The position numbers were made by a program, and so were the translations under genes. From an uncultured Eubacteriales bacterium (lineage in GTDB: Bacteria; Acidobacteriota; Aminicenantia; Aminicenantales; Aminicenantaceae): 64,000 nt of DNA. Below the pieces are notes generated by a model, which saw only the letters and a program-made list of their open reading frames with translations, was not told the origin of the DNA and ran no database searches. This document shows, in pieces, positions 9,627 through 55,443 of this stretch (the first letter of the stretch is position 1; the number at the start of each line of letters is the position of its first letter). The stretch covers positions 181,559-245,558 of the forward strand of contig CAYFWF010000003.1 of the NCBI GenBank assembly GCA_964346815.1, given 5' to 3'.

Positions 9627-10151
9627 TCAAGGACGTTGAATCCATTCTTTGGATTTTTCGAAGACGCTCACGAAAGTTTTCCTGTTGAGAGAGAAGAGTT
9701 TTGCGTCGGTCCTCAGTTTGATGCTGTCTGTCAAAGGGTTAGGCCGTTCCATGATGGTGGCCAGGACTTTAAGCGGAGAATCCAGCGCTTTTAAGAGGAC
9801 AGCACGGAATCGGTTAGAGAGGAGTTCCATTTTCCCTATCTCATCGATGATCACGATTTTCTTCTCATTCAGGGCCTTTTCAATCGATTCGCATCCCAGA
9901 TCTTCCAGGGCTTTTATATTTATACCGTATCTGCCGACATGAAAACTGGATTGAAAACGCTTTCTGGCCAATAGATCGCTTCTTCCCTCCGGAATCGTAT
10001 TAATCAGGAAGCCGACACGCTCTCCTTGCTCCCTCAGCTCTTCCGTGAAAAAGCCCCCTGCATTATTCTTCAGAATTTCAAGTTCGAGCAGTCTCTGGAT
10101 CAGGGTGGTCTTTCCAGACCGAGGCAGGCCTGTTATGAGCAGATTGGTCAA
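9627..10151 (-). CDS. THEP1/MJ1559-family P-loop nucleoside-triphosphatase
   Basis: N-terminal Walker A LITGLPRSGKTTLIQR and Walker B VIIIDEIGKMEL. 174 aa size fits the NTPase THEP1 family. Confidence 0.7.
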   Translation of the reverse strand: MTNLLITGLPRSGKTTLIQRLLELEILKNNAGGFFTEELREQGERVGFLINTIPEGRSDLLARKRFQSSFHVGRYGINIKALEDLGCESIEKALNEKKIVIIDEIGKMELLSNRFRAVLLKALDSPLKVLATIMERPNPLTDSIKLRTDAKLFSLNRKTFVSVFEKSKEWIQRP

Positions 10152-24723: not shown

Positions 24724-25782
24724 CTACGTCCAGCCGTACATGTATCCGGTCTCGTACATGGCAAGAATATTTTCCACAGGTGTTATGGACTGAAAATTGT
24801 GACAGGGGGCAAGGATGTACCCTCCGTCCTTACCGAGCACCTCCAAATTCTCTATGACTTCAGACCTGACTTGGGAAACGGATCCAAAAGGCAAAGTACA
24901 TTGATTATCCATCGCCCCATGGAAAATTATTTGGCTTCCGAAGTCTTTCTTCAGCTCTTTACGGTCCATATTATTACACCGCCACTGTATGGGATTCAAG
25001 ATGTCGATCCCGATATCTATCATATCCGGAATAATTCTTCGGATACTCCCATCGTTGTGGTGAAAAGCATAAGCTCCATTCTGATGGACGAGTTCAATGA
25101 CGTGTTTCATGCGGGGCAGTAGAAATTTTCGGACATGGGAGGGGGATATCATAAGGTCTTCTTGAGCTCCCATATCTTCTGCCACATAGGTCAGCATCAC
25201 CTGACCGGGGATTTGTTCGTAGATGCGCTCGATATCCTTGAGGCCGAGGTGCAAGAGTCTGTCCAGGCAGAAATGGACGAGCTCGGGATTCTCGATCAAA
25301 TCCAACAAGGCTCGTTCCTGCCCTCGGAGGTTTTTGTATATCAAGAAGGGCTCGTAATGTCCTCCTAAAATGGGATACATCTCATTACTTCTCATCTGGG
25401 CTTTGATCGTACTGTAATCCCACCAATCAGGATCGGGCCAGCGATAAAACCGCTCCACATCTGAAAGGGAATCATATTCTGCAAGAGGATGAAAGATGCA
25501 TTCTTCGTAAGCCCCAGTCCCATAATCCATCTGTGTATATCGGCAGCCGAAAACGTCCCTTCCGGGTGGAAAAGAAGGGCCTGCATATTTTGGCTTCACT
25601 TTGACAACCCGATCCACATGAAGCTTTTTCATTGTTTCTTCTTCGCTCGAACAACCCAAATGCCTTGTGAGGAGTGAGGTGGTCTCTGGAGTTGCCCAAT
25701 AATCCATCGGCGTTCGATCGGGTTTTTTCCGAGTCAAGACAGCCAACCATCTTTCCTTCGGAGACATTGATTCTCTGGGCAT
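24724..25782 (-). CDS. uroporphyrinogen decarboxylase (URO-D) / MtaA-CmuA family protein
   Basis: 352 aa. URO-D-family architecture (conserved N-terminal RTPMDYWATPE-type region and C-terminal GGYILAPCHN). No adjacent heme genes, so likely a methyltransferase-type URO-D homolog. Confidence 0.65.
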   Translation of the reverse strand: MPRESMSPKERWLAVLTRKKPDRTPMDYWATPETTSLLTRHLGCSSEEETMKKLHVDRVVKVKPKYAGPSFPPGRDVFGCRYTQMDYGTGAYEECIFHPLAEYDSLSDVERFYRWPDPDWWDYSTIKAQMRSNEMYPILGGHYEPFLIYKNLRGQERALLDLIENPELVHFCLDRLLHLGLKDIERIYEQIPGQVMLTYVAEDMGAQEDLMISPSHVRKFLLPRMKHVIELVHQNGAYAFHHNDGSIRRIIPDMIDIGIDILNPIQWRCNNMDRKELKKDFGSQIIFHGAMDNQCTLPFGSVSQVRSEVIENLEVLGKDGGYILAPCHNFQSITPVENILAMYETGYMYGWT

Positions 25783-26068: not shown

Positions 26069-27430
26069 ATGGATGGATTGCTCTCCCGGCTGACAAAGCG
26101 GATGGATCATCTTTATGAATTCGACAGGGAGCCTGTTTCGCTGGAAAAGCTGCAAACCGGGGCCAGATTCGCGGGCCTTTTTGCAGGAGAGCATGTGGCT
26201 GCCACTGAATTTGTCATAGGCGCATTTTTTGTCCTTCATGGCGTCAGCCTGCATGACCTGATCCTCGGGCTTTTTATCGGGAATTTTCTGGCAGTCTTGT
26301 CTTGGACCTTTATATGTGCGCCTATCGCCACTCGGACGCGTTTGACTCTGTACTGGTATCTGAGAAGGATTGCCGGCCCCGGGCTCAACTTTGTCTACAA
26401 TATCGCCAATGCCCTCCTTTACTGCGTTCTGGCAGGGGCTATGATTGCCGTATCAGCCACTGCCCTCGGTTTAGCCTTCGGGATCAGCATTCCTTCCCTG
26501 GATGACGTATATCCCCGCAGCTTCGGCTGGATTGCCTTGACCCTGGCCATCGGTACGGTGTTTACGATCCTGGCAGTTCTGGGATTCGAAAAGCTGAGCC
26601 GTTTTGCCCAGGTTTGTTCTCCCTGGATTTTTATCCTGTTCATAGCCGGGGCTGTCGCGCTTCTTCCGCGCCTGGGTGTTCATCCAAATTTCGATAATCT
26701 CTTGGAGATTGCCGCGACAAAAATATGGAACGGAGTCGCTGCTGAAGGCCAAGAAAAATATCATCTTGGACATATTTTGTTCTTCGCCTGGTTTTGTAAT
26801 CTGGCCATGCACGTTGGACTTTCTGATATGGCTTTGTTCCGGTATGCGAGAAACTGGATCTACGGATTGTATTCCGCCTTTGGCATGTACCTCGGACATT
26901 TCCTTGCCTGGATTTGTTCAGGAATTATGGTGGCAGCCGTGGGAAGGGAGATGCATCCGGGATTGATGGCTTTTGAAGCCGCAGGACTGGCTGGAGCAGC
27001 AGGGGTGTTCATCGCAGGATGGACTACAGCCAATCCCACCCTATACAGGGCTGGGCTTGCCCTGCAGGTGATCACTCCTGGCTGGCCTCGCTGGAAGGTC
27101 ACGCTCTCTGCTGGCATTCTGACAACTCTGCTCTCTTGCTTTCCAGTTTTTTTTATGAAACTTTTGGATTATGTAGCCATTTATGGACTGGTTTTGATGC
27201 CCATCGGTGCCATCGTTTTCGCCGAACACTGGATTTTTCCCCTGCTTAAAATCGACCGATACCAGGCAGAGAAAAAGAGGTGGGTGTTCAACTGGACGGC
27301 TGCTGGAGCTTGGGGGGGAACCCTGGTGCTGTGTTTCTTCATGCCCATCCATCTTTTTTTCCGCTGGCTGCCCGGGTATCTCTTTGCGCTGATACTGTAC
27401 GTCCTGCTCAATTTAGCGAGAAGGAAATGA
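26069..27430 (+). CDS. NCS1 / purine-cytosine permease-like 12-TM transporter
   Basis: 453 aa, about 12 hydrophobic segments. General resemblance to the cytosine/hydroxymethylpyrimidine permease (CodB/CytX) family; substrate not assignable from sequence. Confidence 0.45.
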   Translation: MDGLLSRLTKRMDHLYEFDREPVSLEKLQTGARFAGLFAGEHVAATEFVIGAFFVLHGVSLHDLILGLFIGNFLAVLSWTFICAPIATRTRLTLYWYLRRIAGPGLNFVYNIANALLYCVLAGAMIAVSATALGLAFGISIPSLDDVYPRSFGWIALTLAIGTVFTILAVLGFEKLSRFAQVCSPWIFILFIAGAVALLPRLGVHPNFDNLLEIAATKIWNGVAAEGQEKYHLGHILFFAWFCNLAMHVGLSDMALFRYARNWIYGLYSAFGMYLGHFLAWICSGIMVAAVGREMHPGLMAFEAAGLAGAAGVFIAGWTTANPTLYRAGLALQVITPGWPRWKVTLSAGILTTLLSCFPVFFMKLLDYVAIYGLVLMPIGAIVFAEHWIFPLLKIDRYQAEKKRWVFNWTAAGAWGGTLVLCFFMPIHLFFRWLPGYLFALILYVLLNLARRK

Positions 27431-27629: not shown

Positions 27630-30290
27630 CTATCTCTGTTTCAGTTCGAAGTCGTAATGGCCGGAACCAACCTTAATGATCACAGCGCTTCGGGTCTCTT
27701 CCACCATTTGAATGCCGGACACACCTGTCAGGAATTTCTGGCCGTCGTAGATTTGCTGCCCGCTTTCTTTGAGGACAATGGCTCTCAGTTTCAGCTTAGG
27801 TACATGGATCTCCGCCTCTGTGTTTACAGGAAGAAATACTTCCAGGGTGATGAGGTCGGTTGATTTTGACCAAGCGGTCGTTAGAGGTCCCCTGGGTGTA
27901 TGAATCGTTCCAGATACGTATTCCAGGTCCCGCACCATACAGGGTTGAATCAGAACGTTCTGGAATCCTATCGAATCTTCCTCCTGGTCGATGCCGGCCA
28001 AAACCCGATACAGCCAGGACCCGACGCTCCCGAACATCGGATGATTGTGGGAATTCATCGAGGGACCTGTCTTATACTGCCACAGTTCCCAAAGGGTCGT
28101 GGCACCGTTTCGGATCATAAAACCCCAACTGGGATAACTGGTTTGAGTGGCGAGTTCGTAGGCTAAGGAGGATGCACCGAAGTCAGCCAAGACTTCCATG
28201 ATGTATTTCGTCCCGAGAATACCGGTAGTCAAATGGGTATTGTTTTTATAGAGGATGTCGCTTTTTAAGTTTTGGAAGACTGAACCTCTCACTGACTCCG
28301 GCGCTAAATCCAGAAACAAAGCCAGTGTGTTGGCGGTTTGTGTCCCATTCGCATAACTCCTGGTTTCGGGATCGAAGTATTTGTTGTGGATGGCCTTCTT
28401 GATCTTCTCGGCCAGCTCCTGGTAGATTGTTACCTCATCCCTGTAGCCCAACGTCTGAGCCATTTTTTCGAGAAGGCGGACACTGTAGTAATAATAAAAA
28501 GAGGAAACGAAGCTGCCCGGCGTCCTATCGATAGCCACCCAATCCCCATAGTAACTGTATTGAAGGAGGTTGGCTGCGGATTTTGAGCGAAGAAACTCCA
28601 CGTATTTTTTCACACCTTCGTAGTGCTCCTCGAGAATTCGCATATCGCCATAATACCGATACATGTACCAGCAGAGCAGGGGATAGGCAGCACCCCACGC
28701 AGGATCGGCCGGACGCTGGCCCCATATGTGAGGGACGGTATCTGTTATGGTCCCTTCGTGGTCCTGGACATCTCGGATATCCTGGATAAATTTGGTGTAT
28801 AACGCGCCCATATCAAAATTCATCAAAGCCTCTTCTGCTGTGAGATGAGCATCTCCGAGCCATCCCATTCGTTCATCCCGCTGATTGCAGTCTGTGGGAA
28901 TGCTGTGGAGGTTGGTTTTTTGTCCCCATACGATCAGCCGCTGAAGTCGGTTCAAGAGGAGATGAGAGCAGGAAAAACCGCCGATTTGTTCGACAGCGGA
29001 ATGGACGACTTTCCCCCTTATCGTATCAGCGGTTGGAACACCAGGATATCCTGTCAGTTCCACATAGCGAAAACCGTGGTAGGTGAACCGGGGTTCATAG
29101 GCTTCTTTCCCCTGTCCTTTCAAAATATAAAGATCTTGGGCTCTGGCAGATCGCAGGTTTTCTTGGTTGATCATACCATTAGCGTAGAGCAGTTCTGAAT
29201 ACCGGAGGCGCACTTCAGTACCGCGGGGACCGGATAGTTCAATCTCAGCCCATCCGCTGAAGTTCTGTCCCATGTCAAAGACATAAACTCCCTCTCGGGG
29301 TTGGGTGATATGCAGGGGAACAAGCGTATCCATCACCCGGATCGGCTGAACCATCTGCGCGGAGAGGGAGCCTTTAGGAGCGATCCCCGTTTCAACAGGA
29401 CTCCAACCGGTGTCATCGAAGCCCGGTCTATCCCATCCCGGTGTTTCCAGTCGGGCGTCGTACACCTCACCGTTGTAGATGCTATCAGATACGATCGGTC
29501 CGTCTTTTCCTTTCCAGGATTTGTCGCTGAAAAATGTGAGTTTTTTTCCGTCTTCACATTCTATATTGACTTGAAGAATCAGAAGGAAAGGGCCGCTCCA
29601 GCCCTTTCCGAGCATTACGCCCAGGGCGTTTTCCCCCTCTAGAAGTCTATCCGTAATATCGTATGTTGAATAGAGAACTCTTTTTTCGTAAGTTGTGTAT
29701 CCCGGGTCGAGAACGTTGTTCCCCACCTTCTGTCCATTCAAGCGCATCTCATAGTACCCCAGCCCGCAGATAAAGGCTCTCCCGCGTTTGACTTTTCCGT
29801 TTACGGAAAACTCTTTGCGGACCTGGTTCATCCCGCCTATCCATTCTCCGTCCCAATCTTCGGGATGGAAAAGGCCTGTGTCAAACCGAGCAGCCTTGCT
29901 GTAAGGACTGGGAATATCATCTTTATCCCAATAACGAACCTTCCAAGTGTAGGTCCGATCGCTCTCTAAAGGCGTCCCCTCGTAAACCACATGTATAGAC
30001 CGATCAGAGAGAACTTTGCCTGTATCCCATAAAATATCGGATTTCTCAGAAGCGCTGGTGGATACGATCAATTGATACGCAGACTGTTTTTGGCCCCTTT
30101 CTGAGTGCCGCAGCATCCAGGAAAACCGGGGCTTTCGCACATCTATTCCCAAAGGATTCTTAAGGTATTCACATCTGAGATTATGGGGAGGCTGAGGACC
30201 GGCATTGTGGGTAGATGCTGCGGTCCGAGCCGAAGCTGTACAAAGCAGTGAACACGCTAGGACGATCTTCAAACATTGCTCAGCGATCAT
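27630..30290 (-). CDS. alpha-L-rhamnosidase, glycoside hydrolase family 78, secreted
   Basis: Signal peptide. GH78 N-terminal hallmark LRCEYLKNPLGIDVRKPRFSW. 886 aa, typical multi-domain GH78 length. Confidence 0.85.
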   Translation of the reverse strand: MIAEQCLKIVLACSLLCTASARTAASTHNAGPQPPHNLRCEYLKNPLGIDVRKPRFSWMLRHSERGQKQSAYQLIVSTSASEKSDILWDTGKVLSDRSIHVVYEGTPLESDRTYTWKVRYWDKDDIPSPYSKAARFDTGLFHPEDWDGEWIGGMNQVRKEFSVNGKVKRGRAFICGLGYYEMRLNGQKVGNNVLDPGYTTYEKRVLYSTYDITDRLLEGENALGVMLGKGWSGPFLLILQVNIECEDGKKLTFFSDKSWKGKDGPIVSDSIYNGEVYDARLETPGWDRPGFDDTGWSPVETGIAPKGSLSAQMVQPIRVMDTLVPLHITQPREGVYVFDMGQNFSGWAEIELSGPRGTEVRLRYSELLYANGMINQENLRSARAQDLYILKGQGKEAYEPRFTYHGFRYVELTGYPGVPTADTIRGKVVHSAVEQIGGFSCSHLLLNRLQRLIVWGQKTNLHSIPTDCNQRDERMGWLGDAHLTAEEALMNFDMGALYTKFIQDIRDVQDHEGTITDTVPHIWGQRPADPAWGAAYPLLCWYMYRYYGDMRILEEHYEGVKKYVEFLRSKSAANLLQYSYYGDWVAIDRTPGSFVSSFYYYYSVRLLEKMAQTLGYRDEVTIYQELAEKIKKAIHNKYFDPETRSYANGTQTANTLALFLDLAPESVRGSVFQNLKSDILYKNNTHLTTGILGTKYIMEVLADFGASSLAYELATQTSYPSWGFMIRNGATTLWELWQYKTGPSMNSHNHPMFGSVGSWLYRVLAGIDQEEDSIGFQNVLIQPCMVRDLEYVSGTIHTPRGPLTTAWSKSTDLITLEVFLPVNTEAEIHVPKLKLRAIVLKESGQQIYDGQKFLTGVSGIQMVEETRSAVIIKVGSGHYDFELKQR

Positions 30291-30329
30291 TTTCTCCTCC
30301 TCTCGATGAACTCATTCACATGGATAAGC

Positions 30330-30348
30330 TTGACAAGGTTCTTGTCAA
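30330..30348. promoter_or_regulatory. perfect palindrome TTGACAAG-GTT-CTTGTCAA in the rhamnosidase/rhaB divergent intergenic region (candidate operator; also contains a TTGACA -35-like hexamer)
   Basis: Read directly; 8-bp arms, 3-nt centre. Confidence 0.35.
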
Positions 30349-30429
30349 AATCCGGAGATTCCCGGACCAATATTGTAAAAGGCACTTTCCTGTATAGCGG
30401 CATTATATAAAATCATCCAATGAAATGAC

Positions 30430-30458
30430 AGATCCAACCTGGATATTCGAGGTTGGAT
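30430..30458. promoter_or_regulatory. inverted repeat GATCCAACC-N11-GGTTGGATC upstream of rhaB (candidate operator or 5'-UTR hairpin)
   Basis: Read directly; 9-bp arms; about 90 nt upstream of rhaB start. Confidence 0.3.
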
Positions 30459-30547
30459 CAAGAATTCAAGAGCGGAAGTTCCAATTTTAATTGACACAAA
30501 CAGGACAGTGTGATAAGTGGAGTCTGACGAGCAAGAGGTGTGCAGAT

Positions 30548-32020
30548 ATGGCTGTTTCCCGATATTTAGCTTTGGACTTGGGCGCCGAGAGCGGGAGGGC
30601 GATTCTCGGCTACCTTGACAGAGAGAGGCTGCAGGTCAAAGAAATCTCGCGCTTTCCCAATCGGATGCTTTCTATTCGTGGACATCTGTATTGGAATGTC
30701 TTCCGTCTCTTCGAGGAAATCAAGAAAGGAATGGAAATCTGTTTTACAGAGGCGCAAATTAAAAGCCTGGCTTTGGATACCTGGGGTGTCGATTTCGGTT
30801 TTTTGGCTGAGGATGGAACGATCATTGGCCTGCCATTTGCCTACAGGGACCCTCATACCAAGGGAAAAATGGAGGAATTCTTCGAAAGGATTCCGAAAAA
30901 TAAAGTCTATCGGCTGACCGGAATACAGTTCCTCCAGTTCAATTCCCTGTTTCAGTTGTTTGCCATGAAGAGGGACAAATCATCCCTTTTGGAAGCGGCC
31001 AAAGATCTTCTTTTTATTCCGGACCTCTTCAACTACCTTCTGACAGGACAAAAGAAAACAGAATTCACTTTTGCGACAACATCCCAGCTCTATAATCCGA
31101 GGAAGGGAGGTTGGGAAGAGGAACTTTTCGAAGCCCTGGAAGTCCCGAGTTCGCTCATGCAGGAGATTGTCCAGCCGGGTACGATTATTGGAGAATTGGA
31201 TGATGGAACGAGCCGAACTCATGGAGAGGATCCGGTGCCGGTGATAGCCGTGGCCTCACATGATACAGGCTCGGCAGTTGCAGCAGTGCCTGCCACCGGC
31301 CAGGACTGGACATACATAAGTTCAGGAACATGGTCGCTGATGGGGATCGAAACGCACGAACCGATAATCAATGATCAAGCGATGGAACTCAACTTCACCA
31401 ACGAAGGCGGCGTGGAGGGGACTTTTCGATTCTTAAGGAATATCACTGGACTCTGGCTCTTACAGGAATGTCGAAAGTCCTGGGCGAAAGAAAAGGCTTA
31501 CAGCTACGAAACACTGATGATCTTGGCGCAGGAGGCCCCAGCCTTCCAGTTCTTCGTCGATCCTGACTGGCAAGGCTTCCTCAGCCCTCAGGATATGCCC
31601 GAGGCTATTCATAAATATTGCAAAGCGACCAAGCAGAAAACGCCTGGTTCGCCTGGTGAATTTGTGCGGTGTATTCTCGAGAGTCTGGCACTGAAATACC
31701 GCATCGTGCTGGATCGATTGAGAGAGATTCATTCCCAGCCTATTCGGAAGGTTCATATCATCGGCGGGGGAGTTAAGAATGCTCTGCTCTGTCAGTTTAC
31801 TGCCAATGCCACTGGCCTTCCTGTATATGCTGGCCCCATAGAGGCTACATCGATCGGAAACATCATGATGCAGGCCTTCACCTTGGGAGATGTGCCTTCA
31901 GTAAGAGAGATGCGGGAGGTGGTTCGCCGCTCATTTGAACTTTCAGTCTATGAGCCTGAACATGTGAACGAGTGGGATAGGATTAAAGAGCAATATCTCG
32001 AGATTATTGGTATGGAGTGA
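30548..32020 (+). CDS. rhaB: rhamnulokinase (FGGY carbohydrate kinase)
   Basis: N-terminal FGGY motif YLALDLGAESGRAILG. Length about 490 aa, immediately followed by rhaA. Start set at MAVSRYL with AAGAGGTG SD; the ORF-track start at 30491 is an extension. Confidence 0.8.
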   Translation: MAVSRYLALDLGAESGRAILGYLDRERLQVKEISRFPNRMLSIRGHLYWNVFRLFEEIKKGMEICFTEAQIKSLALDTWGVDFGFLAEDGTIIGLPFAYRDPHTKGKMEEFFERIPKNKVYRLTGIQFLQFNSLFQLFAMKRDKSSLLEAAKDLLFIPDLFNYLLTGQKKTEFTFATTSQLYNPRKGGWEEELFEALEVPSSLMQEIVQPGTIIGELDDGTSRTHGEDPVPVIAVASHDTGSAVAAVPATGQDWTYISSGTWSLMGIETHEPIINDQAMELNFTNEGGVEGTFRFLRNITGLWLLQECRKSWAKEKAYSYETLMILAQEAPAFQFFVDPDWQGFLSPQDMPEAIHKYCKATKQKTPGSPGEFVRCILESLALKYRIVLDRLREIHSQPIRKVHIIGGGVKNALLCQFTANATGLPVYAGPIEATSIGNIMMQAFTLGDVPSVREMREVVRRSFELSVYEPEHVNEWDRIKEQYLEIIGME

Positions 32021-32024
32021 AGAT

Positions 32025-33305
32025 ATGGGAGATAGCAGAAAAATTGTAGAAGCCTTCAAAACAGCCAAGGAAATTTTCCGTGAAATAGGGGTGAATGTAG
32101 ACGATGCTCTAGAACGACTAAGCCAGATATCTATCTCTATACCTTGCTGGCAGGCGGATGATATCACAGGCTTTGAAAAGTCGAATGCACAACTGGAGGG
32201 GGGAGGCATTCAAGTCACGGGTCATTTTTTTGGAAAGCCTCGAACGATCGAAGAGCTGAGGATGGACCTCGAGAAGGCTTTTTCCTTGCTGCCCGGGCAT
32301 CACCGCTTGAACCTTCACTCGATTTATGGAGAATTCGGGACGAGTGAAGTCGGCCGCGATCAAATGGATGCGCGTCATTTCAAAGGTTGGGTAGAATGGG
32401 CCAGTCAAAAGAACATCAAGCTGGACTTCAATGCGACCTGCTTTTCTCACCCCCGAGCGGATTCAGGATTTACTCTGAGCAGCAAAGATAAGGGAATCCG
32501 CAGCTTCTGGATAGAACATGTCAAGCGCTGTCGCGAGATAAGTGCGTATATGGGACGAGCACTCGGCAGCTCCTGCATCCACAATCTTTGGATTCCGGAT
32601 GGGATGAAGGACATAACTATCGACCGAAAGGCCAGGAGATCCTTGCTGAAAGAGTCTCTTGAAGAAATATATTCTGACGATTACGACCCCAAGGAAATGA
32701 AGGATTCTCTGGAAAGCAAGCTGTTTGGAATCGGAAGCGAATCCTTTGTGGTTGGTTCCCATGAGTTCTATTTTGGATATGCTCTTTCCAAAGGAAAGAT
32801 GCTCTGTCTGGATGCGGGACATTTTCATCCTACAGAGTCTTTATCGGATAAAATCTCGTCTGTTCTCCTTTTCTTCGAAGAACTCCTTCTTCATCTCAGC
32901 CGGGGCATCAGATGGGACAGCGATCATGTGGTCATCCTGAATGAGGATATGAGGAGCATTGCCGAGGAGGTCATAAGGAGTGACGCTCTGGACAGGACCC
33001 ACATGGCCTTGGATTTTTTCGATGCCAGTATGAATCGGGTGGGGGCTTGGGTTATCGGAGCCAGAGCTGTCCTGAAGAGTTTTCTTTGTGCTTTGCTTCA
33101 GCCCGTGGAAAAGCTCCGCAGATTCGAGGAGGAGCGGGATTTTTTTTCCAGGCTCGCTCTTCTTGAAGAAATAAAAACTCTCCCTGTCGGTGTGATCTGG
33201 GATTACTATTGTCTGAAGAGGGATGTCCCGGTATCGAACCTGTGGATGAGAGAGGTCAAGCGGTACGAATCAGAGGTTCTCTACAAACGTCAAGGATCAA
33301 AATAG
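32025..33305 (+). CDS. rhaA: L-rhamnose isomerase
   Basis: SISIPCWQADDITGFE matches the E. coli RhaA PVSMHCWQGDDV region. About 426 aa. Start at MGDSRKIVEAF 5 nt after the rhaB stop. Confidence 0.85.
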   Translation: MGDSRKIVEAFKTAKEIFREIGVNVDDALERLSQISISIPCWQADDITGFEKSNAQLEGGGIQVTGHFFGKPRTIEELRMDLEKAFSLLPGHHRLNLHSIYGEFGTSEVGRDQMDARHFKGWVEWASQKNIKLDFNATCFSHPRADSGFTLSSKDKGIRSFWIEHVKRCREISAYMGRALGSSCIHNLWIPDGMKDITIDRKARRSLLKESLEEIYSDDYDPKEMKDSLESKLFGIGSESFVVGSHEFYFGYALSKGKMLCLDAGHFHPTESLSDKISSVLLFFEELLLHLSRGIRWDSDHVVILNEDMRSIAEEVIRSDALDRTHMALDFFDASMNRVGAWVIGARAVLKSFLCALLQPVEKLRRFEEERDFFSRLALLEEIKTLPVGVIWDYYCLKRDVPVSNLWMREVKRYESEVLYKRQGSK

Positions 33306-33770
33306 GCTCTTCACTAAATCAGCCAGATTTTGTGCATACTGTTTGCAGCATTCTTGCGCCCTCTCATCCGGAAAATCGATGGATACCGGTCCATAATGAT
33401 CGCCTCTATGGTCTCCCTGGATGATCATTCCGTGGATCAACAGCCCGTTGAGCAGATTAAGGACAGTTGTTTCATTTCCCCCTCCTACATTTGCAGCAGA
33501 AGAAAACGCTCCGCCAACCTTTCCCTTAAGCCTTCCATGGAATTTGATACTCTCATCCAAAAGCTTCTTGACCGGCCACGCCATCGATCCATAATAGGTC
33601 GGCGAACCCAGAACGATACAATCATAGTCGATCAGGTCGTCGGCCTTGGTTTCTTCCACTCTTTTCAGATCGACCGATAGATCTTCTTTTTTCATCACGT
33701 CGGTGATGATTTGGGCCATCTTCTCCGTGTTCCCTGTCTGAGAATAATAACATATCAGGACTTTTGCCAT
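33297..33770 (-). CDS. flavodoxin-family protein (WrbA/multimeric flavodoxin-like)
   Basis: KVLICYYSQTGNTEKMA (flavodoxin FMN-phosphate loop T-G-N-T) and LGSPTYYG motif. 157 aa. Confidence 0.75.
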   Translation of the reverse strand: MAKVLICYYSQTGNTEKMAQIITDVMKKEDLSVDLKRVEETKADDLIDYDCIVLGSPTYYGSMAWPVKKLLDESIKFHGRLKGKVGGAFSSAANVGGGNETTVLNLLNGLLIHGMIIQGDHRGDHYGPVSIDFPDERAQECCKQYAQNLADLVKSLF

Positions 33771-33785
33771 AATCTTACCTCCTGT

Positions 33786-35108
33786 TTACCATTTCTGGGC
33801 CTTTATAGGTTCCATTTTTCGCAGATTCAATCCTCTTTCATACGCTCCGCTTCGATAAAGACAAATTTCTCTTACCGACGATGGATGATGCAGGACTTCA
33901 GAGAGAGACTGAGATCCCACTCCCCAAACACCTCCCCCTCTCACAATCACTACCTTGTAATCATGAAGCTGCTCGAGAAAAGTCTCTATGTTGAATTTTG
34001 GTGGGAGAACAGGTATGGCGAGGTAAAGGTAGCTTCCCTCTGCATCGATAGGAATGACCCGGTCGAGCGGACGTCTTTCTCCCGGATAGATGAAGTGGGA
34101 ATGAGCCTCGGCTTCGGGAACCCAGCAGTGGATCACGGTTTGAAAATTTGTCTCTGCATAGATGGTTTTATGAATATCGAGTTCCCTGGTATCTCCTCTT
34201 TCTCGGCTCAGTGGGATTTCCAGGAGTGGGCCACCGATTTCTCTCGGCATGGAAGCCTTGGGAGAATAAAACATGGTTCTGACTCCGCGGATGGAGAAAG
34301 AGCCTGTATGGAAGGGAGACAGCCTCGATTCGAAGATCCTGGCTCCAGTCTTATGGAATTCCTTGATCAGTTCTTCTTCACGGGGGAAGTCACAGGCTTC
34401 ATCTCCTTGGATCGAGTATTCATCTGGAGGATATGTGAAATGGGCATCCGGGCCGGAATAAATTTTTTCCTTCAAGGAATCGACATCAACCTGAATTTTT
34501 TTCATGAGGCGTGAGATATAGCCTGCGTTGTTGGCCACACACTGGAGGAAAAATGCCTCTTTCAGTGTCCGCCCCTTGGAAAAAGCTCCATGCGCCTGCA
34601 CGAGTGTCACAGGATGACGGGAAAGCCTTTCCGGTATGACTCTGACCATTTTTGTTGAACCACTGGGGAGGGCGAACCAATCTACAGGGATGATACCGTC
34701 AAGATGGTAATACCCCAGAGGATCCACAGGATAAAAGGGCTTGGGCTGACCGGGCTTCGCTTCGTCATCGAGGGTGTCGATGATAAGATCCTTGGTATGA
34801 CAGTGCATCGAAGCGCCGACGTCTTTAAGAGATAAAATTTTTACGTGGATATCCGTCTCAGAGGAAGCTTTATAATATCCAAAATCCGTTTCTTTGAAAG
34901 ACGGAAAGCAGATATGTTCCCGCTCGAGATCTCCTTTCTGGGATCCCGTAGCTGTGATCGCCATCCTTTCCCTTCCCTTCTCATCCCTCCACCGCATCAC
35001 CATATTGCCGCAGTGGCTGTCCTGAATATCATACAAGAGCGAAGCCCGCCCGACAGTTTGAAACAACCGTACAAGTTCTTCGCTCGCTTTCCAGTAGTCC
35101 TTCCTCAT
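33786..35108 (-). CDS. tandem class II aldolase/adducin-fold protein (candidate rhamnulose-1-phosphate aldolase analog); second domain degenerate
   Basis: N-terminal domain has ITATGSQKGDL, MHCHTKD (H-x-H metal site) and VQAHGAFSKGRTLKEAF. Residues about 215-440 repeat the pattern as FYSPKASMPREIG, IHCWVPEAEAHSHF and VIVRGGGVWGVGSQSLSEVL, with the HG His replaced by Gly. Confidence 0.55.
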   Translation of the reverse strand: MRKDYWKASEELVRLFQTVGRASLLYDIQDSHCGNMVMRWRDEKGRERMAITATGSQKGDLEREHICFPSFKETDFGYYKASSETDIHVKILSLKDVGASMHCHTKDLIIDTLDDEAKPGQPKPFYPVDPLGYYHLDGIIPVDWFALPSGSTKMVRVIPERLSRHPVTLVQAHGAFSKGRTLKEAFFLQCVANNAGYISRLMKKIQVDVDSLKEKIYSGPDAHFTYPPDEYSIQGDEACDFPREEELIKEFHKTGARIFESRLSPFHTGSFSIRGVRTMFYSPKASMPREIGGPLLEIPLSRERGDTRELDIHKTIYAETNFQTVIHCWVPEAEAHSHFIYPGERRPLDRVIPIDAEGSYLYLAIPVLPPKFNIETFLEQLHDYKVVIVRGGGVWGVGSQSLSEVLHHPSSVREICLYRSGAYERGLNLRKMEPIKAQKW

Positions 35109-36949
35109 TTTATCTCATCGATCTTCAGAGATTTCACCAATCTTTCGGTGGGCCTCCCTTTTGCATCCCATTCTCTGGCCAGATAATAGTCGGCTCGCAG
35201 TCTTTCTATCAGGTCAGACGAAATCATTCTCTCTTTACTCCCGACCAGTATAGGCTCTTGCTGGAACCGTTCGGGAAGAGTATCCTCGTCCGACTCCAAT
35301 CCAGTTTCGAGGTTGAATATCCTCTCGAGAGTAGCTACGCGGTTAGCGATCTCTTCTAGCCTTGCGATAGAAAAATTCATCCCAGTGATGCCGCTCGCAA
35401 TACGGGCCCATGGGTCTGAAGAGAAGGCAAATCCTGTAAACCGGCATATCCCCAGACTATCTTGGATGATCCCCAGATTTTGCATGTTGCGAATAGCGAT
35501 GGGTGACTGAAGAATGCTGTACCGAGGAATCTCCTTTGTGCCTCCAAAGAAGGCAAGCGAGACCGCATATCCTCCCCTGAGATGGCAGGCTCCTGTCGGA
35601 GAGGTCATATAGCCCAAAGCCTGGGTAAACGAAGCCCTCGGATCATAAGCAGGGATCTCCATTTTTTTCACAGTCATGGCATATTCGGGATGCTTATAAT
35701 GTTCCGCCAAGCGGTGAGATCCCTCTGCTAATAAATCACCCATCCCTTCCCTAAGTGCGATGAGGTCCGCCATTTTCACCAGGATCTCTGCATCTCCGAA
35801 ACAGAGACGGATATCTTCCTTTATCTCTTGGGTTATAATCCCTTTTTCTGCAAGTTCCAGAGCACAAGCCAGCGTTCCCCCAAAGCTGATGGTGTCCAAT
35901 CCCAGCTCGTTGCAGCGGTAGTTCGCCAAGGTGATACTTCCCAGATCATAGATTCCACAATTCGGACCGGTCATCACGATTGTCTCGTATTCAGGCCCTT
36001 CTCCTTTTTTGTCACCCAGGCGGGTGTGACGCTGGCAGGCTAATGCGCAGCCGTAACAGGCTCCGGCTCGTTCGAGAATGGAGCGGTGCAAAGTCTCTCC
36101 CGATATTTGATCCAAATCTTCTTCTTCGTGAATATTGTTCTGAAAGTTCCGATAGGGAAGCATCTCGATGATATCGATGAGCTTTAGGAGTCCAGAGGTT
36201 CCCAGTTGCCGCAGGAGGCGCTTGGTAATGGGCGCTGATCTCAACAGATAGAGGGCTTGGTCGAGTCCGGAGTTAAAGCGTTCCTCGTCACATATCTGTG
36301 CTTTTAGCCTTCCTGACACTTGAATCGCCTTGAGGTTTTTACTGCCGAAGACGGCTCCCGGGCCTCCGCGCCCGTAGGCTCTGTTTTTATCGTTCATTAC
36401 AGAGGCAAAGCGGACTAGGCTTTCTCCTGCTGGACCGATGCAGAGTATGCGGGGGCGGTCGTTCGGGGCAGCATCCTGGGTCATTTGATCCGTTGTCTCG
36501 TGCACCTCCAATCCCCAAAGATGATTTTGAGGCACGATGTCCACATGATCTGGATGCACATCTATGGTTACAGGCTCTGAGGCCTTGCCTTTGATCACCA
36601 GAATATCATAACCGCTGGACTTGAACGCGTGAGCCCAGCTGCCTCCACAGTTCGAGCTTCCGATTAATCCTGTCAGAGGAGACTTGAAAACCATATGTCC
36701 CCTGCAAGCTGTCGGAGCGCGTGTCCCGATAAGAGGAGATGTGGCGATGACTATGACATTTTCACCACCGAGTGGGTCACACAGGGGATTGATCTCATCA
36801 AAGAAGATACGGGTAGCAAGTCCTCTCCCGCCCAGATAATGCTCAGCGAGGGACTGTCTCAAGGGTATTTCCCGAATCTCTCCTTTCGAGAGGTCGATTT
36901 CAAGGATTTTCCCGTGGTAACCGAACAGTATATGATCATTCATGAGCAT
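35105..36949 (-). CDS. aor: aldehyde:ferredoxin oxidoreductase family protein (tungsten/pterin AOR)
   Basis: N-terminus FGYHGKILEIDLSKGEI…YLGGRGL and overall 614-aa AOR architecture. True start may be the third Met (36943). Confidence 0.85.
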   Translation of the reverse strand: MLMNDHILFGYHGKILEIDLSKGEIREIPLRQSLAEHYLGGRGLATRIFFDEINPLCDPLGGENVIVIATSPLIGTRAPTACRGHMVFKSPLTGLIGSSNCGGSWAHAFKSSGYDILVIKGKASEPVTIDVHPDHVDIVPQNHLWGLEVHETTDQMTQDAAPNDRPRILCIGPAGESLVRFASVMNDKNRAYGRGGPGAVFGSKNLKAIQVSGRLKAQICDEERFNSGLDQALYLLRSAPITKRLLRQLGTSGLLKLIDIIEMLPYRNFQNNIHEEEDLDQISGETLHRSILERAGACYGCALACQRHTRLGDKKGEGPEYETIVMTGPNCGIYDLGSITLANYRCNELGLDTISFGGTLACALELAEKGIITQEIKEDIRLCFGDAEILVKMADLIALREGMGDLLAEGSHRLAEHYKHPEYAMTVKKMEIPAYDPRASFTQALGYMTSPTGACHLRGGYAVSLAFFGGTKEIPRYSILQSPIAIRNMQNLGIIQDSLGICRFTGFAFSSDPWARIASGITGMNFSIARLEEIANRVATLERIFNLETGLESDEDTLPERFQQEPILVGSKERMISSDLIERLRADYYLAREWDAKGRPTERLVKSLKIDEIK

Positions 36950-37155
36950 GCACGCGCTGGGATTTCTAGCATACTAAATGCCGGCCATCAAAACAAGAAG
37001 CAAGAACGCATGGTTTTCCAAGAAATCTTACATTGATGGAAGTCTTTCTTTCGCTTTCTGCATGATTTATTATACGATGACGTGACCGCGAGAATGATCT
37101 GCATCCAATATTTTGTCATTTCCTCACGAAAAATTGTAAAAATTTCCACTCGATA

Positions 37156-43604: not shown

Positions 43605-44783
43605 TTAAGAAAAAAGTGCCAGAACTTTTTTGTAGGTATTGGTCACTCCCCTGACTGCCCTTCCAAAGCATTTCTGTTTGAGCTTTACAGCATGAAACCG
43701 ACAGACTTCATGACAGCACATACAGTGTATGCAGCATGATCGGTCTATCGAGGCCGCCTTATCTTGTTTCCGAGCAGCTCCTGCAGGACAGATATCGACA
43801 CATTCCCAACAACCCGTGCATCTCTTTTTGATTATTTCAGGCATCAGTATCAGTTGATCTTGAACAAAGGCATGAAGGAAGGCTGGGATTCTTCTTCGGA
43901 TCAGCCCTACGGCGATAGAAGATTGTCTGAAATCTTTAACTCTGACATCCTGTATTTTCTCTCCGAGGATGTCGATCTTTTCTAACTGTCCGGTGCCGAG
44001 CCCCCTTTCGGACGCAAATTGGGTGGTCAGGACATCGAACGGATCCAGACCAATGATTTTGGATGCCACCGCATCCAAGGCTGGAGCGTCAAGGCTGGCG
44101 AGGATGAGATTCACTCTCTTGGGATTGCCCGCAGATGGTCCCTCTCCCTCCATCGCGACAATGGCGTCCATGATATTCAGATTGGGGGGTGCACAGGAAA
44201 AAATATCAACGAGCATCTGGCTGAAAAGCTCGTTTTTAAAAAATTGGCGGTGGTAGCTGCTCCGTAGACCATGTGGGATAATACCATACATATTTTTTAC
44301 AGCTCCAGTGAAAACTGTGAAAGAGTGTGTCTTTAATTTGGGGAGGTTGATGAGGTAATCTGATTCGAGCACGAGAGGGGAGACAAAGGCTTCTTTCAAG
44401 ACTTTCCCCTCTAATCTGATTCTTCTAAAGCCTGTTTCCTTGAGATTCACGAGACGAATACCGAGTTCGTTACAGAGCTCACGATAGCCTGAAATCTGGA
44501 ATCCGTTTTTTTGTTTTGCCTGGATGTCGTCTCCAACAGTGATTGTACACCCCATGTCCTTCAGGAGAAGAAGGACTTCCCTGGTGAATGCGGGATGCGT
44601 GACAATGGCTTCTTCAGGCGGCGAAGGAGGGGACAGGTGATTGATTTTGACGAAAACATGGGATCCTGGCCTTACGATATTTTCTAATCCCCCCAACAGG
44701 GAGAGCGCCTGAACCAGCGCTTGATGCAGGATGCCGCTCCGATACTTATGAATTCCTCGAAGAGAAACTTTTGCATGTTTCAC
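43605..44783 (-). CDS. DUF362-domain protein fused to a C-terminal 2x[4Fe-4S] ferredoxin domain
   Basis: DUF362 core NLPKLKTHSFTVFTGAVKNMYGIIP. C-terminal CTGCWECVDICP and CIHCMCCHEVC cysteine clusters. Confidence 0.65.
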   Translation of the reverse strand: MKHAKVSLRGIHKYRSGILHQALVQALSLLGGLENIVRPGSHVFVKINHLSPPSPPEEAIVTHPAFTREVLLLLKDMGCTITVGDDIQAKQKNGFQISGYRELCNELGIRLVNLKETGFRRIRLEGKVLKEAFVSPLVLESDYLINLPKLKTHSFTVFTGAVKNMYGIIPHGLRSSYHRQFFKNELFSQMLVDIFSCAPPNLNIMDAIVAMEGEGPSAGNPKRVNLILASLDAPALDAVASKIIGLDPFDVLTTQFASERGLGTGQLEKIDILGEKIQDVRVKDFRQSSIAVGLIRRRIPAFLHAFVQDQLILMPEIIKKRCTGCWECVDICPAGAARKQDKAASIDRSCCIHCMCCHEVCRFHAVKLKQKCFGRAVRGVTNTYKKVLALFS

Positions 44784-44946
44784 GATTCGCCGGGTATTAT
44801 ATCAAAGTCCCTTCCCTGATTTATAGTCGTCACTGGCAGACATCTGCTTCCCTCCGGATACACCTTGTCTGGCACCGAAAGCAATCCTCGCTGAGAGGGG
44901 AATGCTGATCCTCTGAGTTGACTTCCCGGCAAGAGTCTATTAGTGT

Positions 44947-51150: not shown

Positions 51151-51177
51151 ATCGACTCCGCCTCTATCTACGAGGGG

Positions 51178-51972: not shown

Positions 51973-52033
51973 ACATAATCTCGGATTGTAACGGGCAAAT
52001 CCTCATGACGGATGCGCCAGAAAGGAGGATTTC

Positions 52034-55330: not shown

Positions 55331-55443
55331 AAAGACTTGACTTTCTCGCGGATATGATGGAAAAAATAACCTGTCTAAAGGATGGAGGATCATCCGAAAG
55401 CTGAGGGATTTACGCTACAGGCTTATAAAATGGACATAAAGGA

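Follow-up and report, generated by a model that had tools for sequence, protein, structure and literature searches.

We propose that the last two steps of L-rhamnose catabolism at this locus are carried out by a previously undescribed, double-domain aldolase and by an aldehyde oxidoreductase of the AOR family. First, a GH78 rhamnosidase would free rhamnose, which RhaA and RhaB would convert to L-rhamnulose-1-phosphate. The 440-aa tandem class II aldolase, which we call ALD2, would cut this to DHAP and L-lactaldehyde, with catalysis confined to its N-terminal, FucA-like half. The AOR-family (presumably tungsten) enzyme would then oxidize L-lactaldehyde to L-lactate, independently of NAD, and pass the electrons to a low-potential carrier. 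In related genomes, enzymes whose genes lie directly downstream (LdhGH or LutABC) would convert the lactate to pyruvate. Judging from sequences, we give the aldolase and AOR steps a probability of about 0.7. A complete phosphorylated L-rhamnose pathway, with non-orthologous enzymes for the last two steps, is the best explanation for the locus.

The window (the whole stretch of DNA that we analyzed, 64 kb) is from an uncultured sediment bacterium of the Aminicenantes type. Its relevant features are:

26069..27430, plus strand: 453-aa polytopic membrane protein, a peripheral part of the locus; its translation is hydrophobic throughout
27630..30290, minus strand: GH78 alpha-L-rhamnosidase, 886 aa; five Pfam domains for rhamnosidases, with E from 1.6e-106 to 1.4e-13
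30491..30520, plus strand: promoter-like block TTGACA ... GTGTGATAAGTG, 5' of rhaB and conserved in orthologous loci
30548..32020, plus strand: rhaB, rhamnulokinase, 490 aa; TIGR02627, 510 bits (cutoff 528)
32025..33305, plus strand: rhaA, L-rhamnose isomerase, 426 aa; NF002203, 643 bits (cutoff 572), and PF06134, E = 3e-183
33297..33770, minus strand: flavodoxin, 157 aa, short and WrbA-like, third gene of the operon; Flavodoxin_1/_5 and FMN_red from Pfam
33786..35108, minus strand: ALD2, 440 aa; two PF00596 stretches
33789..34391, minus strand: C-terminal half of ALD2 (about aa 240–440), class II aldolase fold without the metal and phosphate ligands
34434..35108, minus strand: N-terminal half of ALD2 (about aa 1–225), an intact aldolase domain of the FucA type, metal- and DHAP-dependent
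35105..36949, minus strand: AOR-family aldehyde oxidoreductase, 614 aa; AFOR_N and AFOR_C (E = 6e-114 and 7e-74)
36968..36978, minus strand: TTTAGTATGCT motif, about 20–30 nt 5' of the start of the AOR gene

A sequence-only reading of this DNA had reported six genes (the rhamnosidase, rhaB, rhaA, the aldolase, the AOR, and the flavodoxin), and matches from Pfam, NCBIfam, or PDB confirmed all six at their coordinates. The last three form an operon that is convergent with rhaA. They had been listed as aldolase, AOR, and flavodoxin, but they are transcribed in the order AOR, ALD2, flavodoxin. They had also been described as coupled by ATGA overlaps. This is true of the stop codon of AOR and the start codon of ALD2 ('AAAATGAGG', read directly), but the flavodoxin gene begins 15 nt past the stop codon of ALD2 and has its own AGGAGG ribosome-binding site. 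The 3' end of the flavodoxin gene overlaps the 3' end of rhaA by 9 bp. The GC content of the locus is about the same as in the remainder of the window. As claimed, RhaD, FucO, and AldA are absent from the 64 kb of the window: when all ORFs of about 150 aa and longer (minus overlapping shadow ORFs) were scanned with Pfam, there was no second PF00596 protein and no PF00465 or PF00171. A canonical rhaD, fucO, or aldA may lie outside the window.

RhaB scored just 129 bits against the fuculokinase model, as compared to 510 bits for TIGR02627. For the GH78 protein, the NCBIfam rhamnosidase models scored below their cutoffs. In the ORF list, rhaB and rhaA start with TTG (at 30491 and 32007), while the called genes start with ATG (at 30548 and 32025), and the recorded products match the 490-aa RhaB and the 426-aa RhaA exactly. 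The TTG starts are probably too far 5'; the one at 30491 lies inside the conserved TTGACA box. The block that contains this box emerged from comparing the rhaB/GH78 intergenic regions of six loci, and we infer from its sequence that it is promoter-like. The TTTAGTATGCT motif recurs upstream of 7 of 9 orthologous AOR genes and could serve as an operator or a –10 element. Comparing the upstream regions of rhaB and AOR did not identify an operator that they share. The membrane protein had no match in Pfam, NCBIfam, or PDB. Its homologs are labelled "cytosine permease-like" by JGI, and its gene adjoins GH78 in 10 non-redundant loci. It is a candidate transporter for rhamnose or rhamnosides.

Each half of ALD2, on its own, matches a solved class II aldolase. 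In the AF2 model (pLDDT 92.7, pTM 0.94), both halves have the fold of FucA (E. coli 1fua and T. thermophilus 2fk5), with TM of about 0.8. The N-terminal half has the full set of FucA's catalytic and DHAP-binding residues, including those for the metal, for acid/base catalysis, and for binding phosphate. Across 56 family members, with identity down to 22%, nine of these positions never vary (G33, N34, T51, G54, S81, E83, H101, H103, and H172), and a tenth, S82, is at least 90% conserved. The counterparts of these ten residues in FucA, by alignment, are G28, N29, T43, G44, S71, S72, E73, H92, H94, and H155. The C-terminal half is still similar to FucA from T. thermophilus (E = 7.5e-7), but it has IHCW in place of HxH and RGGG in place of HG. 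By its sequence, it is a dead duplicate that has lost the metal ligands. FucA, in contrast to this 440-aa tandem with its dead second domain, forms homotetramers of a 215-aa protein. The ALD2 family has few members: 177 representatives (E ≤ 1e-3) among 1.84 billion.

The family profile of ALD2 gave 102 and 73 bits for FucA, 50 for AraD, 43 for MtnB, 41 for DrdA, and 26 for RhaD. The possibility that ALD2 is an MtnB-type dehydratase, which the sequence-only reading had raised against itself, does not fit these scores: ALD2 is FucA-like. Because FucA and RhaD differ in stereochemistry, the specificity of a FucA-like protein for rhamnulose-1-phosphate is not predictable from its sequence.

It is improbable that ALD2 is not an aldolase at all but a partner that serves AOR in another way, for example as a subunit for maturation or scaffolding, or as a decarboxylase, epimerase, or dehydratase. 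Enzymes with these last three activities do belong to the superfamily (YgbL/OtnC, AraD, and MtnB all match), one half of ALD2 is already catalytically dead, and the tandem architecture has no precedent among solved structures. However, the equivalent of the acid/base Glu73 is invariant or nearly so, as are the motifs that typically bind phosphate in FucA (Ser-Ser-Glu and Gly-Asn), ALD2 adjoins rhaA-rhaB even where AOR is missing, and this rha locus has no other aldolase.

Among solved structures, the AOR is most similar to WorL from Acetomicrobium mobile (9mqx_D, 473 bits), which is the counterpart of WOR1 from Eubacterium limosum, and to AOR from Pyrococcus furiosus (1aor, 461 bits); FOR (257 bits) and WOR5 (213 bits) are more distant. 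The cysteine ligands of the [4Fe-4S] cluster (CxxCxxxC and a further C), the pterin motifs, and the equivalents of Glu313 (in EGPEYE) and His448 (in CH(L/I)) all align with the P. furiosus enzyme. The two proteins are also of equal length, with the same domain order and no genes for extra subunits. Its sequence places the AOR in the broad-specificity AOR/WOR1 clade, and judging from family membership, its metal is presumably tungsten. Lactaldehyde is among the best substrates of WOR1 from E. limosum, which oxidizes it in vitro (PMC11725836).

In related genomes, AOR and ALD2 usually occur together. AOR is immediately upstream of ALD2, on the same strand, in 50 of 57 non-redundant loci that each have at least 1.5 kb of upstream sequence (52 by gene-order listing), and 42 of 57 measured junctions have a 4-bp overlap. 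This conserved translational coupling suggests that the two proteins are made in equal amounts and form a complex that contains the toxic aldehyde. Across loci, the identities of AOR and ALD2 drop in parallel (67/66, 66/65, 59/57, 44/33, and 38/29%). In distant subfamilies of ALD2 (29–33% identity), the AOR-ALD2 pair recurs in three forms: with the two genes overlapping; followed by LutA, LutB, and LutC; and followed by a rhamnulokinase-like kinase (458 bits, versus 127 for fuculokinase), an ABC sugar transporter, and a Fucose_iso_C isomerase. The AORs of these distant subfamilies are 38–48% identical to each other, which is not visibly above the usual closeness within the AOR clade.

For 51 loci, the readable downstream DNA extends for 2.5 kb or more. 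rhaA is nearby in 20 of them, an LdhH-type L-lactate dehydrogenase is present in 16, and one or the other is found in 36. (The LdhH protein from locus L022 scored 776 bits against NF045670, whose cutoff is 800.) Two forms of L-lactate-oxidizing enzyme, LdhH-type and LutABC, adjoin the pair. We did not find an isomerase or kinase within 10 kb in the LdhH-type loci, and in about 7 loci the neighbor is CbiX, which is uninformative. Because these contexts are largely clade-specific, there are perhaps 5–7 independent associations, not dozens.

ALD2 lacks an adjacent AOR in loci such as L012, L021, L036, and L086; it adjoins rhaA-rhaB-GH78 in L021 and a GH29 fucosidase in L012. These exceptions speak for a reading in which ALD2 is a rhamnulose- or fuculose-1-phosphate aldolase and AOR is just a nearby broad-spectrum scavenger of aldehydes, neither dedicated to lactaldehyde nor part of a complex. 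The AOR's membership in a broad-specificity clade is consistent with this, and so is the proposed role of WOR1 in detoxifying aldehydes (PMC11725836, PMC12318220). We consider this unlikely, although it is the likeliest of the alternatives: a free-standing enzyme would not be expected to remain tied to one aldolase, with 4-bp overlaps in 42 of 57 pairs, retention of the pair at 29–33% identity, parallel divergence, and two different forms of lactate-oxidizing genes directly downstream.

The recurrent neighbors of ALD2 (rhaA, rhaB, GH78, GH29, the rhamnulokinase-like kinase, and L-lactate dehydrogenases) point to a 6-deoxyhexose substrate and to lactate as the product. They argue against another 1-phosphoketose, for example 5-deoxyribulose-1-phosphate or methylthioribulose-1-phosphate from the salvage of SAM by-products (the "DHAP shunt"), which would yield acetaldehyde or methylthioacetaldehyde for AOR, or L-xylulose-1-phosphate, which would yield glycolaldehyde. 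The DHAP shunt does use FucA-like class II aldolases, and one of these, DrdA (6btd), matches ALD2 by structure and by profile. Also, MtnB models match ALD2 weakly, metK and ahcY are 17–19 kb away, and enzymes of the AOR clade prefer small aliphatic aldehydes. But none of about 90 loci has mtnA, mtnK, drdI, drdK, or a nucleosidase beside ALD2, and ALD2 scores 45 bits against TIGR03328 (cutoff 137). We view these other substrates as improbable.

The opposite direction, with AOR using reduced ferredoxin or flavodoxin to turn lactate into lactaldehyde and ALD2 condensing it with DHAP, is very improbable. Given a low-potential donor, an AOR is able to reduce acids (PMC9295118), and aldolase reactions are reversible, but the setting is catabolic (glycosidases, transporter, isomerase, and kinase), the genes downstream are for lactate-oxidizing LdhGH or LutABC, and there is no known need to synthesize rhamnulose-1-phosphate. 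Overall, the conserved residues, the conserved pair, and the neighboring sugar and lactate genes support the original proposal that the aldolase forms L-lactaldehyde, from a 6-deoxy-ketohexose 1-phosphate, and that AOR oxidizes it to L-lactate.

The flavodoxin fits that proposal less generally. The AOR-ALD2 pairing and the nearby rhaA recur, but the flavodoxin is present in just 10 of the 51 related loci, all from the window's own subclade, and thus does not belong to the module in general. Its best PDB match is a flavodoxin from A. aeolicus (2ark, 1e-22), it also matches 5wid, and every NCBIfam match is under the cutoff. We propose that it is a clade-specific electron acceptor of AOR; elsewhere, the acceptor is probably ferredoxin. 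A flavodoxin is also co-regulated with WOR1 (PMC12318220, PMC11725836). In contrast to the window's AOR, WOR1 (WorABCSL) is a proposed detoxifier and is associated with neither an aldolase nor a sugar pathway, and we did not find the polyferredoxin WorS or the bifurcating module WorABC beside the window's AOR. The P. furiosus AOR has no defined pathway partner either, while the window's AOR gene is joined to an aldolase gene.

Compared to E. coli, the logic of the pathway is the same and RhaA and RhaB are orthologous, but a FucA-like tandem protein would stand in for the 274-aa RhaD, and AOR would take the place of AldA, which is NAD-dependent, and FucO, which is NADH-dependent. Aldolases are co-encoded with consumers of their toxic aldehydes in DmpFG/BphIJ as well, where a class II pyruvate aldolase and an acylating NAD-dependent dehydrogenase act as a complex; presumably, these are not homologous to AOR and ALD2. 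RhaEW (Bacillus subtilis YuxG and Chloroflexus aurantiacus) is also a non-orthologous class II replacement for RhaD in rha loci, with the aldolase physically tied to lactaldehyde oxidation, so that rhamnulose-1-phosphate is converted to DHAP and lactate; its aldolase activity requires the coupled lactaldehyde dehydrogenase (PMC3870299). However, RhaEW is fused to an NAD-dependent short-chain dehydrogenase, whereas here a separate, coupled AOR would use ferredoxin or flavodoxin, and instead of a fused SDR domain, ALD2 has a dead second aldolase domain. We found no similarity of ALD2 specifically to RhaE: there was no NCBIfam match, and none of the 150 best representatives was a protein of roughly 690 aa.

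A non-canonical fate for lactaldehyde has also been proposed for Caldicellulosiruptor, an anaerobe without AldA and FucO, whose rha cluster encodes a predicted acetoin-dehydrogenase-like lactaldehyde enzyme (PMC8579813). Unlike AOR, that enzyme is of the TPP/lipoyl class. Relatives of the tandem aldolase in Desulfobacterales-type MAGs have E1alpha, E1beta, and E2 genes downstream of them and no AOR. This gene context is a lead towards a tandem aldolase that is tied to a Caldicellulosiruptor-like lactaldehyde enzyme.

The sequence-only reading did not recognize this branch of rhamnose catabolism as one that had been described. The idea that AORs act on lactaldehyde from rhamnose does exist, as a study of MAGs proposed that they detoxify it (PMC9324843), but we found no description of a coupled aldolase-AOR module in the literature. 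The pathway is known, and its coupled aldolase-AOR version would be the new element.

The gene content proposed in the sequence-only reading of this locus was correct: GH78 alpha-L-rhamnosidase, rhaB, rhaA, a flavodoxin, a 440-aa class II aldolase-like protein (ALD2), and a 614-aa aldehyde oxidoreductase (AOR) are all present, and their domain and model scores agree. RhaB scores 510 bits on TIGR02627 (cutoff 528), as compared to 129 bits as a fuculokinase, and it scores far above other FGGY kinases. RhaA scores 643 bits on NF002203, over the equivalog cutoff of 572. The locus contains a phosphorylated rhamnose route that is complete up to rhamnulose-1-phosphate. The likely starts are ATG 30548 for rhaB and ATG 32025 for rhaA, and the neighboring features are:

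26069-27430, plus strand: 453-aa membrane protein with ~12 helices, beside GH78
27630-30290, minus strand: GH78 alpha-L-rhamnosidase, with five domains
33297-33770, minus strand: flavodoxin-family protein, 157 aa
33786-35108, minus strand: ALD2, 440 aa, with two PF00596 stretches
35105-36949, minus strand: AOR, 614 aa, AFOR_N and AFOR_C domains

The stop codon of AOR and the start codon of ALD2 share the bases ATGA, which we read directly in the sequence. The same coupling had been claimed for ALD2 and the flavodoxin gene, but there a 15-nt gap with an AGGAGG site inside it separates the two. At their 3' ends, rhaA and the flavodoxin gene have 9 bp in common.

We placed the window on contig JABAOH010000894.1 (assembly GCA_012974985.1), and its nearest relatives are MAGs that carry the label Candidatus Aminicenantes or Acidobacteriota. 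The base composition at 27-37 kb is that of the remaining window, and we rejected a horizontally transferred island on the basis of this flat GC content. When we searched all long ORFs of the window (at least ~150 aa, minus overlapping shadow ORFs) with Pfam, we found no second class II aldolase, no FucO-type iron alcohol dehydrogenase, and no AldA-type aldehyde dehydrogenase, so the reported lack of RhaD, FucO, and AldA holds for these 64 kb. No riboswitch, other Rfam family, or tRNA was found within the window.

ALD2 matches PF00596 (E = 1.2e-22), and each half matches a solved class II aldolase (residues 246-401 match FucA from T. thermophilus and residues 44-115 match aq_1979 from Aquifex). 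We modeled ALD2 with AlphaFold2, using an alignment of 56 family members (pLDDT 92.7, pTM 0.94). In Foldseek searches with this model, both halves superpose on FucA with a TM score of about 0.8-0.85 on the target, and FucA was the best half-length match; no solved structure that spans both halves was found. Among the 56 sequences, nine residues never vary (G33, N34, T51, G54, S81, E83, H101, H103, and H172), and S82 is conserved in at least 90%. In a profile alignment, these columns correspond to the metal ligands and acid/base of E. coli FucA (H92, H94, H155, and E73 align with ALD2 H101, H103, H172, and E83) and to its phosphate-binding residues (G28, N29, T43, G44, S71, and S72 align with G33, N34, T51, G54, S81, and S82). 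Judging by these residues, the FucA-type active site is intact in the N-terminal half. In the C-terminal half, 'IHCW' and 'RGGG' replace the metal histidines, and the Gly-Asn and Ser-Ser-Glu motifs are missing. This half has invariant residues of its own (G268, S271, H312, D354, E356, G390, and G392), and it is predicted to be a dead duplicate under selection.

FucA has one domain of ~215 aa and forms a homotetramer, so ALD2, a tandem protein of 440 aa whose second domain is degenerate, differs from the FucA type in its architecture. Tandem proteins of this family are rare: there are 177 representatives (E ≤ 1e-3) among 1.84 billion cluster representatives, and among the matches listed, ~25 align near full length. 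ALD2 defines a pseudo-dimeric family of class II aldolases whose present annotation is only generic.

We considered other identities for ALD2. Against the family profile, FucA scores 102 and 73 bits, AraD 50, MtnB (4m6r) 43, DrdA 41, and RhaD 26. The RhaD match (1gt7) covers the metal-site region only, and ALD2 does not match any RhaD model in NCBIfam; RhaD from E. coli has ~274 aa. We rejected an MtnB-type dehydratase and a role in the DHAP shunt; clustering with MtnB was an outcome that the sequence-only reading had set against its own proposal. We did not see this: FucA outscores MtnB in the profile, ALD2 scores just 44.6 bits on the MtnB model TIGR03328 (cutoff 137), and the context is wrong as well, with mtn genes at no locus. 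In RhaEW, a RhaE-type aldolase domain and a short-chain dehydrogenase are fused in a protein of ~690 aa. ALD2 has no SDR domain, matches no model of the bifunctional enzyme, and has no specific similarity to RhaE, so we rejected membership in RhaE or RhaEW. The best 150 of the 177 representatives include no relatives of ~690 aa, and there is no fusion to a dehydrogenase among the matches listed. A tblastn search with ALD2 against plasmids, for rhizobial RhaEW genes, gave no match.

AOR contains AFOR_N (E = 6.7e-74) and AFOR_C (E = 6.4e-114). Among solved structures, its best matches are 9mqx_D (WorL; 473 bits), 1aor (AOR from P. furiosus; 461 bits), 9g7j (445 bits), and 8c0z (362 bits). 9MQX is the WOR1 complex from A. 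mobile, and WorL is one of its subunits (PMC12318220). AOR is much less similar to FOR (257 bits), WOR5 (213 bits), and BamB (154 bits), and it scores 57 bits on the GAPOR model (cutoff 1300). By similarity, the window's AOR belongs to the clade of AOR sensu stricto and WOR1, and not with FOR, WOR5, GAPOR, or BamB. When aligned with 1aor and 9mqx_D, it has the [4Fe-4S] cysteines ('ACYGCALAC' and 'GICRF'), the pterin-binding DxxGL(C/D) motifs ('ELGLDT' and 'DSLGIC'), and the equivalents of the catalytic Glu313 and His448 of P. furiosus ('EGPEYE' and 'GACHLRG'). Going by family membership only, its metal would be tungsten; the window encodes no tungstate transporter and lacks a Moco/Tuco riboswitch.

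We also considered if AOR is part of a multisubunit enzyme like WOR1 (WorABCSL). Its neighbors in the window are ALD2, the flavodoxin, a 62-aa ORF, and DUF4416; no gene for a WorS polyferredoxin or for the NAD/FAD subunits WorABC lies beside it, so we rejected this. In the distant locus L107 (2410-5673), AOR-ALD2 follows three divergent genes, which encode a polyferredoxin-like protein of 386 aa, a flavoprotein similar to thioredoxin reductase, and a member of the YhdH/acrylyl-CoA-reductase family. This gene set recalls the multisubunit arrangement of AorABC and WOR1, and L107 is the only locus where polyferredoxin and thioredoxin-reductase-like neighbors were found.

The flavodoxin matches Flavodoxin_1 and Flavodoxin_5 from Pfam, and residues 9-16 ('YSQTGNTE') form the FMN-phosphate loop (S/T-x-T-G-x-T). 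Among solved structures, the flavodoxin 2ark from Aquifex is its closest relative (1e-22). All 22 of its NCBIfam matches are under the cutoffs; the best of these are of the WrbA type, and the protein is WrbA-like in its middle part. Going by established AOR biochemistry, the potential of the aldehyde/acid couple would be low enough to reduce either flavodoxin or ferredoxin.

To compare gene neighborhoods, we gathered 103 loci, called and clustered the ORFs, and merged near-identical loci, which left 74. (The metagenome profile scan used an alignment of 8 sequences and kept only relatives with at least 61% identity.) In 57 loci, 1.5 kb or more could be read 5' of ALD2; among these, AOR was directly 5' of ALD2 and on the same strand in 50 by script, or in 52 with the gene-order listing, because L051 and L085, which are two of the seven exceptions from the script, show AOR in that listing. 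The AOR-ALD2 overlap was exactly 4 bp in 42 of the 57 junctions measured. Downstream genes were counted in the 51 loci with at least 2.5 kb 3' of ALD2. We found rhaA within 6 kb in 20/51. We also found rhaB in 12/51 and GH78 in 11/51. The flavodoxin was present in just 10/51; the window does encode the proposed electron acceptor, but it is not a general part of the module. A protein of ~705 aa with LUD, Fer4, and CCG domains was downstream in 16/51 loci, mostly after a small LUD protein, and 36/51 loci had either rhaA or this protein. The large LUD protein from one such locus (L022) scores 776 bits on NCBIfam's model for LdhH (the large subunit of a quinone-linked L-lactate dehydrogenase; cutoff 800).

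Where AOR is missing, ALD2 adjoins rhaA-rhaB-GH78 in one locus (L021) and a GH29 alpha-L-fucosidase in another (L012). The closed Aminicenantes genome CP070825.1 has an ortholog of ALD2 (75% identity; L008 9995-11320) with an in-frame stop at codon 315, which reflects either loss of the gene's function or an error in sequencing. Neither AOR nor rha genes adjoin this ortholog; ApbE and GH38 are nearby.

More distant loci were found with a profile of distant tandem subfamilies and with context look-ups. In L104 and L105, AOR precedes and overlaps an ALD2 that is ~33% identical to the window's. The P0277 locus has the order AOR, ALD2, LutA, LutB, LutC; LutABC is the split three-gene form of the lactate utilization system. 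In L106, AOR (681 aa) and ALD2 (472 aa) are followed by an FGGY kinase, an ABC sugar transporter, and a Fucose_iso_C-type isomerase, and the kinase scores 458 bits as a rhamnulokinase versus 127 bits as a fuculokinase. L108 has GalK and EF-P, then AOR and ALD2, and then a B12-binding protein. The identities of AOR and ALD2 to the window's proteins drop together (67/66, 66/65, 59/57, 44/33, and 38/29%). Overall, the recurrent neighbors of the pair are makers of 6-deoxy-ketohexose phosphates and oxidizers of L-lactate. We rejected a sulfoquinovose pathway, as RhaA and RhaB are both clearly of the rhamnose type and LdhH or Lut indicate lactate.

Another branch of the tandem family lacks AOR (L109-L115; 23-29% identity; from Desulfobacterales-type MAGs). 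In these loci, for instance at L111 9001-15771, ALD2 is followed by an alpha/beta hydrolase, a TAL/FSA-family protein, and E1alpha and E1beta (and sometimes E2) of a complex of the pyruvate/acetoin-dehydrogenase type, and the set always follows tig-clpP-clpX-lon. A three-subunit homolog of acetoin dehydrogenase in a rhamnose cluster from Caldicellulosiruptor was predicted to process lactaldehyde (PMC8579813), so the complex in L109-L115 may be another partner that acts on the same aldehyde. We consider this analogy to be a lead only.

Several independent genomic associations support the core of the sequence-only reading, in which the aldolase forms L-lactaldehyde and AOR oxidizes it to L-lactate. 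Specifically, ALD2 would cleave rhamnulose-1-phosphate, and possibly fuculose-1-phosphate as well, to DHAP and L-lactaldehyde; AOR would convert L-lactaldehyde to L-lactate; and the electrons would pass to flavodoxin in the window's clade and probably to ferredoxin elsewhere. The comparisons of sequences and gene neighborhoods support the view that the new tandem aldolases and AOR are non-orthologous replacements for RhaD and AldA in a known pathway. A complex of ALD2 and AOR would confine the aldehyde, and the dead C-terminal domain is the candidate interface. We give roughly one chance in three to a stable complex, such as (ALD2)2(AOR)2, in which the dead domain completes the active site and docks AOR, and L-lactaldehyde is channelled to the tungsten center.

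For these steps of rhamnose catabolism, the known alternatives listed by Rodionova et al. are RhaD or RhaE, RhaO/FucO or RhaZ, and RhaW or AldA; their list does not include AOR (PMC3870299). The closest functional analogy to the ALD2-AOR pair is RhaEW, whose aldolase is active only with the fused dehydrogenase (PMC3870299). Lactaldehyde is among the best in vitro substrates of WOR1 from E. limosum, which has a co-regulated flavodoxin and is viewed as a detoxifier (PMC11725836). One MAG study includes a brief remark that lactaldehyde formed from rhamnose could be detoxified by multiple AORs (PMC9324843), and another reports fucose genes with the lactaldehyde enzyme missing (10.1101/2021.03.22.436540). 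In full-text literature searches, we found no paper in which an AOR gene is associated with the gene for a class II aldolase or with rha or fuc operons.

The 453-aa membrane protein is a candidate transporter of rhamnose or a rhamnoside. It stays adjacent to GH78 in relatives. It has no match in Pfam (even with an E-value limit of 10), NCBIfam, or PDB, and its family is very large (at least 7,800 matches; labelled 'cytosine permease-like' by JGI).

Between GH78 and rhaB there is a perfect inverted repeat (GATCCAACC-N11-GGTTGGATC, window 30432-30460) that is not kept in orthologous loci. The adjoining TTGACA...GTGTGATAAGTG block (window 30491-30520) is kept in them, so the TTG at 30491 is probably a -35 box and not the start of rhaB. 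The motif TTTAGTATGCT (window 36968-36978, minus strand) lies ~20-30 nt 5' of the AOR start. Of 9 orthologous upstream regions, 7 contain the motif; the region upstream of rhaB does not share it. When we compared orthologous loci, we found no 9-mer common to the upstream regions of rhaB/GH78 and of AOR.

A URO-D/MtaA-like methyltransferase (window 24724-25782, minus strand) is syntenic with rhaA even without rhaB and GH78, and a protein with a B12-binding domain is directly 3' of ALD2 in two loci (L021 11329-11994 and L108 9381-10034). These genes suggest that a corrinoid methyl-transfer system is linked to the deoxy-sugar locus, possibly for demethylation of O-methylated rhamnose or fucose. 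An NTPase_1 (THEP1-like) gene is just 5' of AOR in many LdhH-type loci, and one of these (L022 6739-7522) adds a ThiS/MoaD-like gene; the window's NTPase_1 copy is at 9627-10151, 25 kb from AOR. A tie between these neighbors and cofactor maturation is possible. A DUF362+Fer4 protein and a 451-aa Fer4_7 protein (window 43605-46302, 7-9 kb from AOR) are candidate iron-sulfur electron carriers, and their synteny is kept in L001, L003, and L021. The window also contains a second glycan cluster (48790-56946), with a GH63/MGH1-like hydrolase, an SDR, a 1098-aa BNR/sortilin-repeat protein, and an SSF transporter. Just past it is a homolog of ComA (phosphosulfolactate synthase; 57595-58416), which is unusual outside of methanogens and Bacillus spores.

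To our knowledge, few tungstoenzymes of the AOR family have an established physiological substrate, and they are usually labelled 'aldehyde scavengers'. An AOR that is tied to one aldolase would have a testable substrate (L-lactaldehyde) and a role in a pathway. If the complex does form, this would be the first enzyme of the AOR clade that is dedicated to one substrate and acts in a central sugar pathway. In anaerobes, the electrons usually end up in 1,2-propanediol, or the aldehyde is enclosed in a microcompartment. AOR would give lactaldehyde a third fate, which would yield two more electrons at low potential and, where LdhGH or LutABC is present, pyruvate. With such a complex, strict anaerobes could oxidize 6-deoxyhexoses completely, from lactaldehyde to lactate to pyruvate, by an NAD-independent route that reduces ferredoxin or flavodoxin. 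Aminicenantes are abundant in sediments, and the AOR route would shift the balance of ATP and H2 when rhamnose and fucose are fermented there. It may also explain why some MAGs encode a fucose or rhamnose isomerase, kinase, and aldolase yet seem to lack the lactaldehyde enzyme (e.g., 10.1101/2021.03.22.436540).
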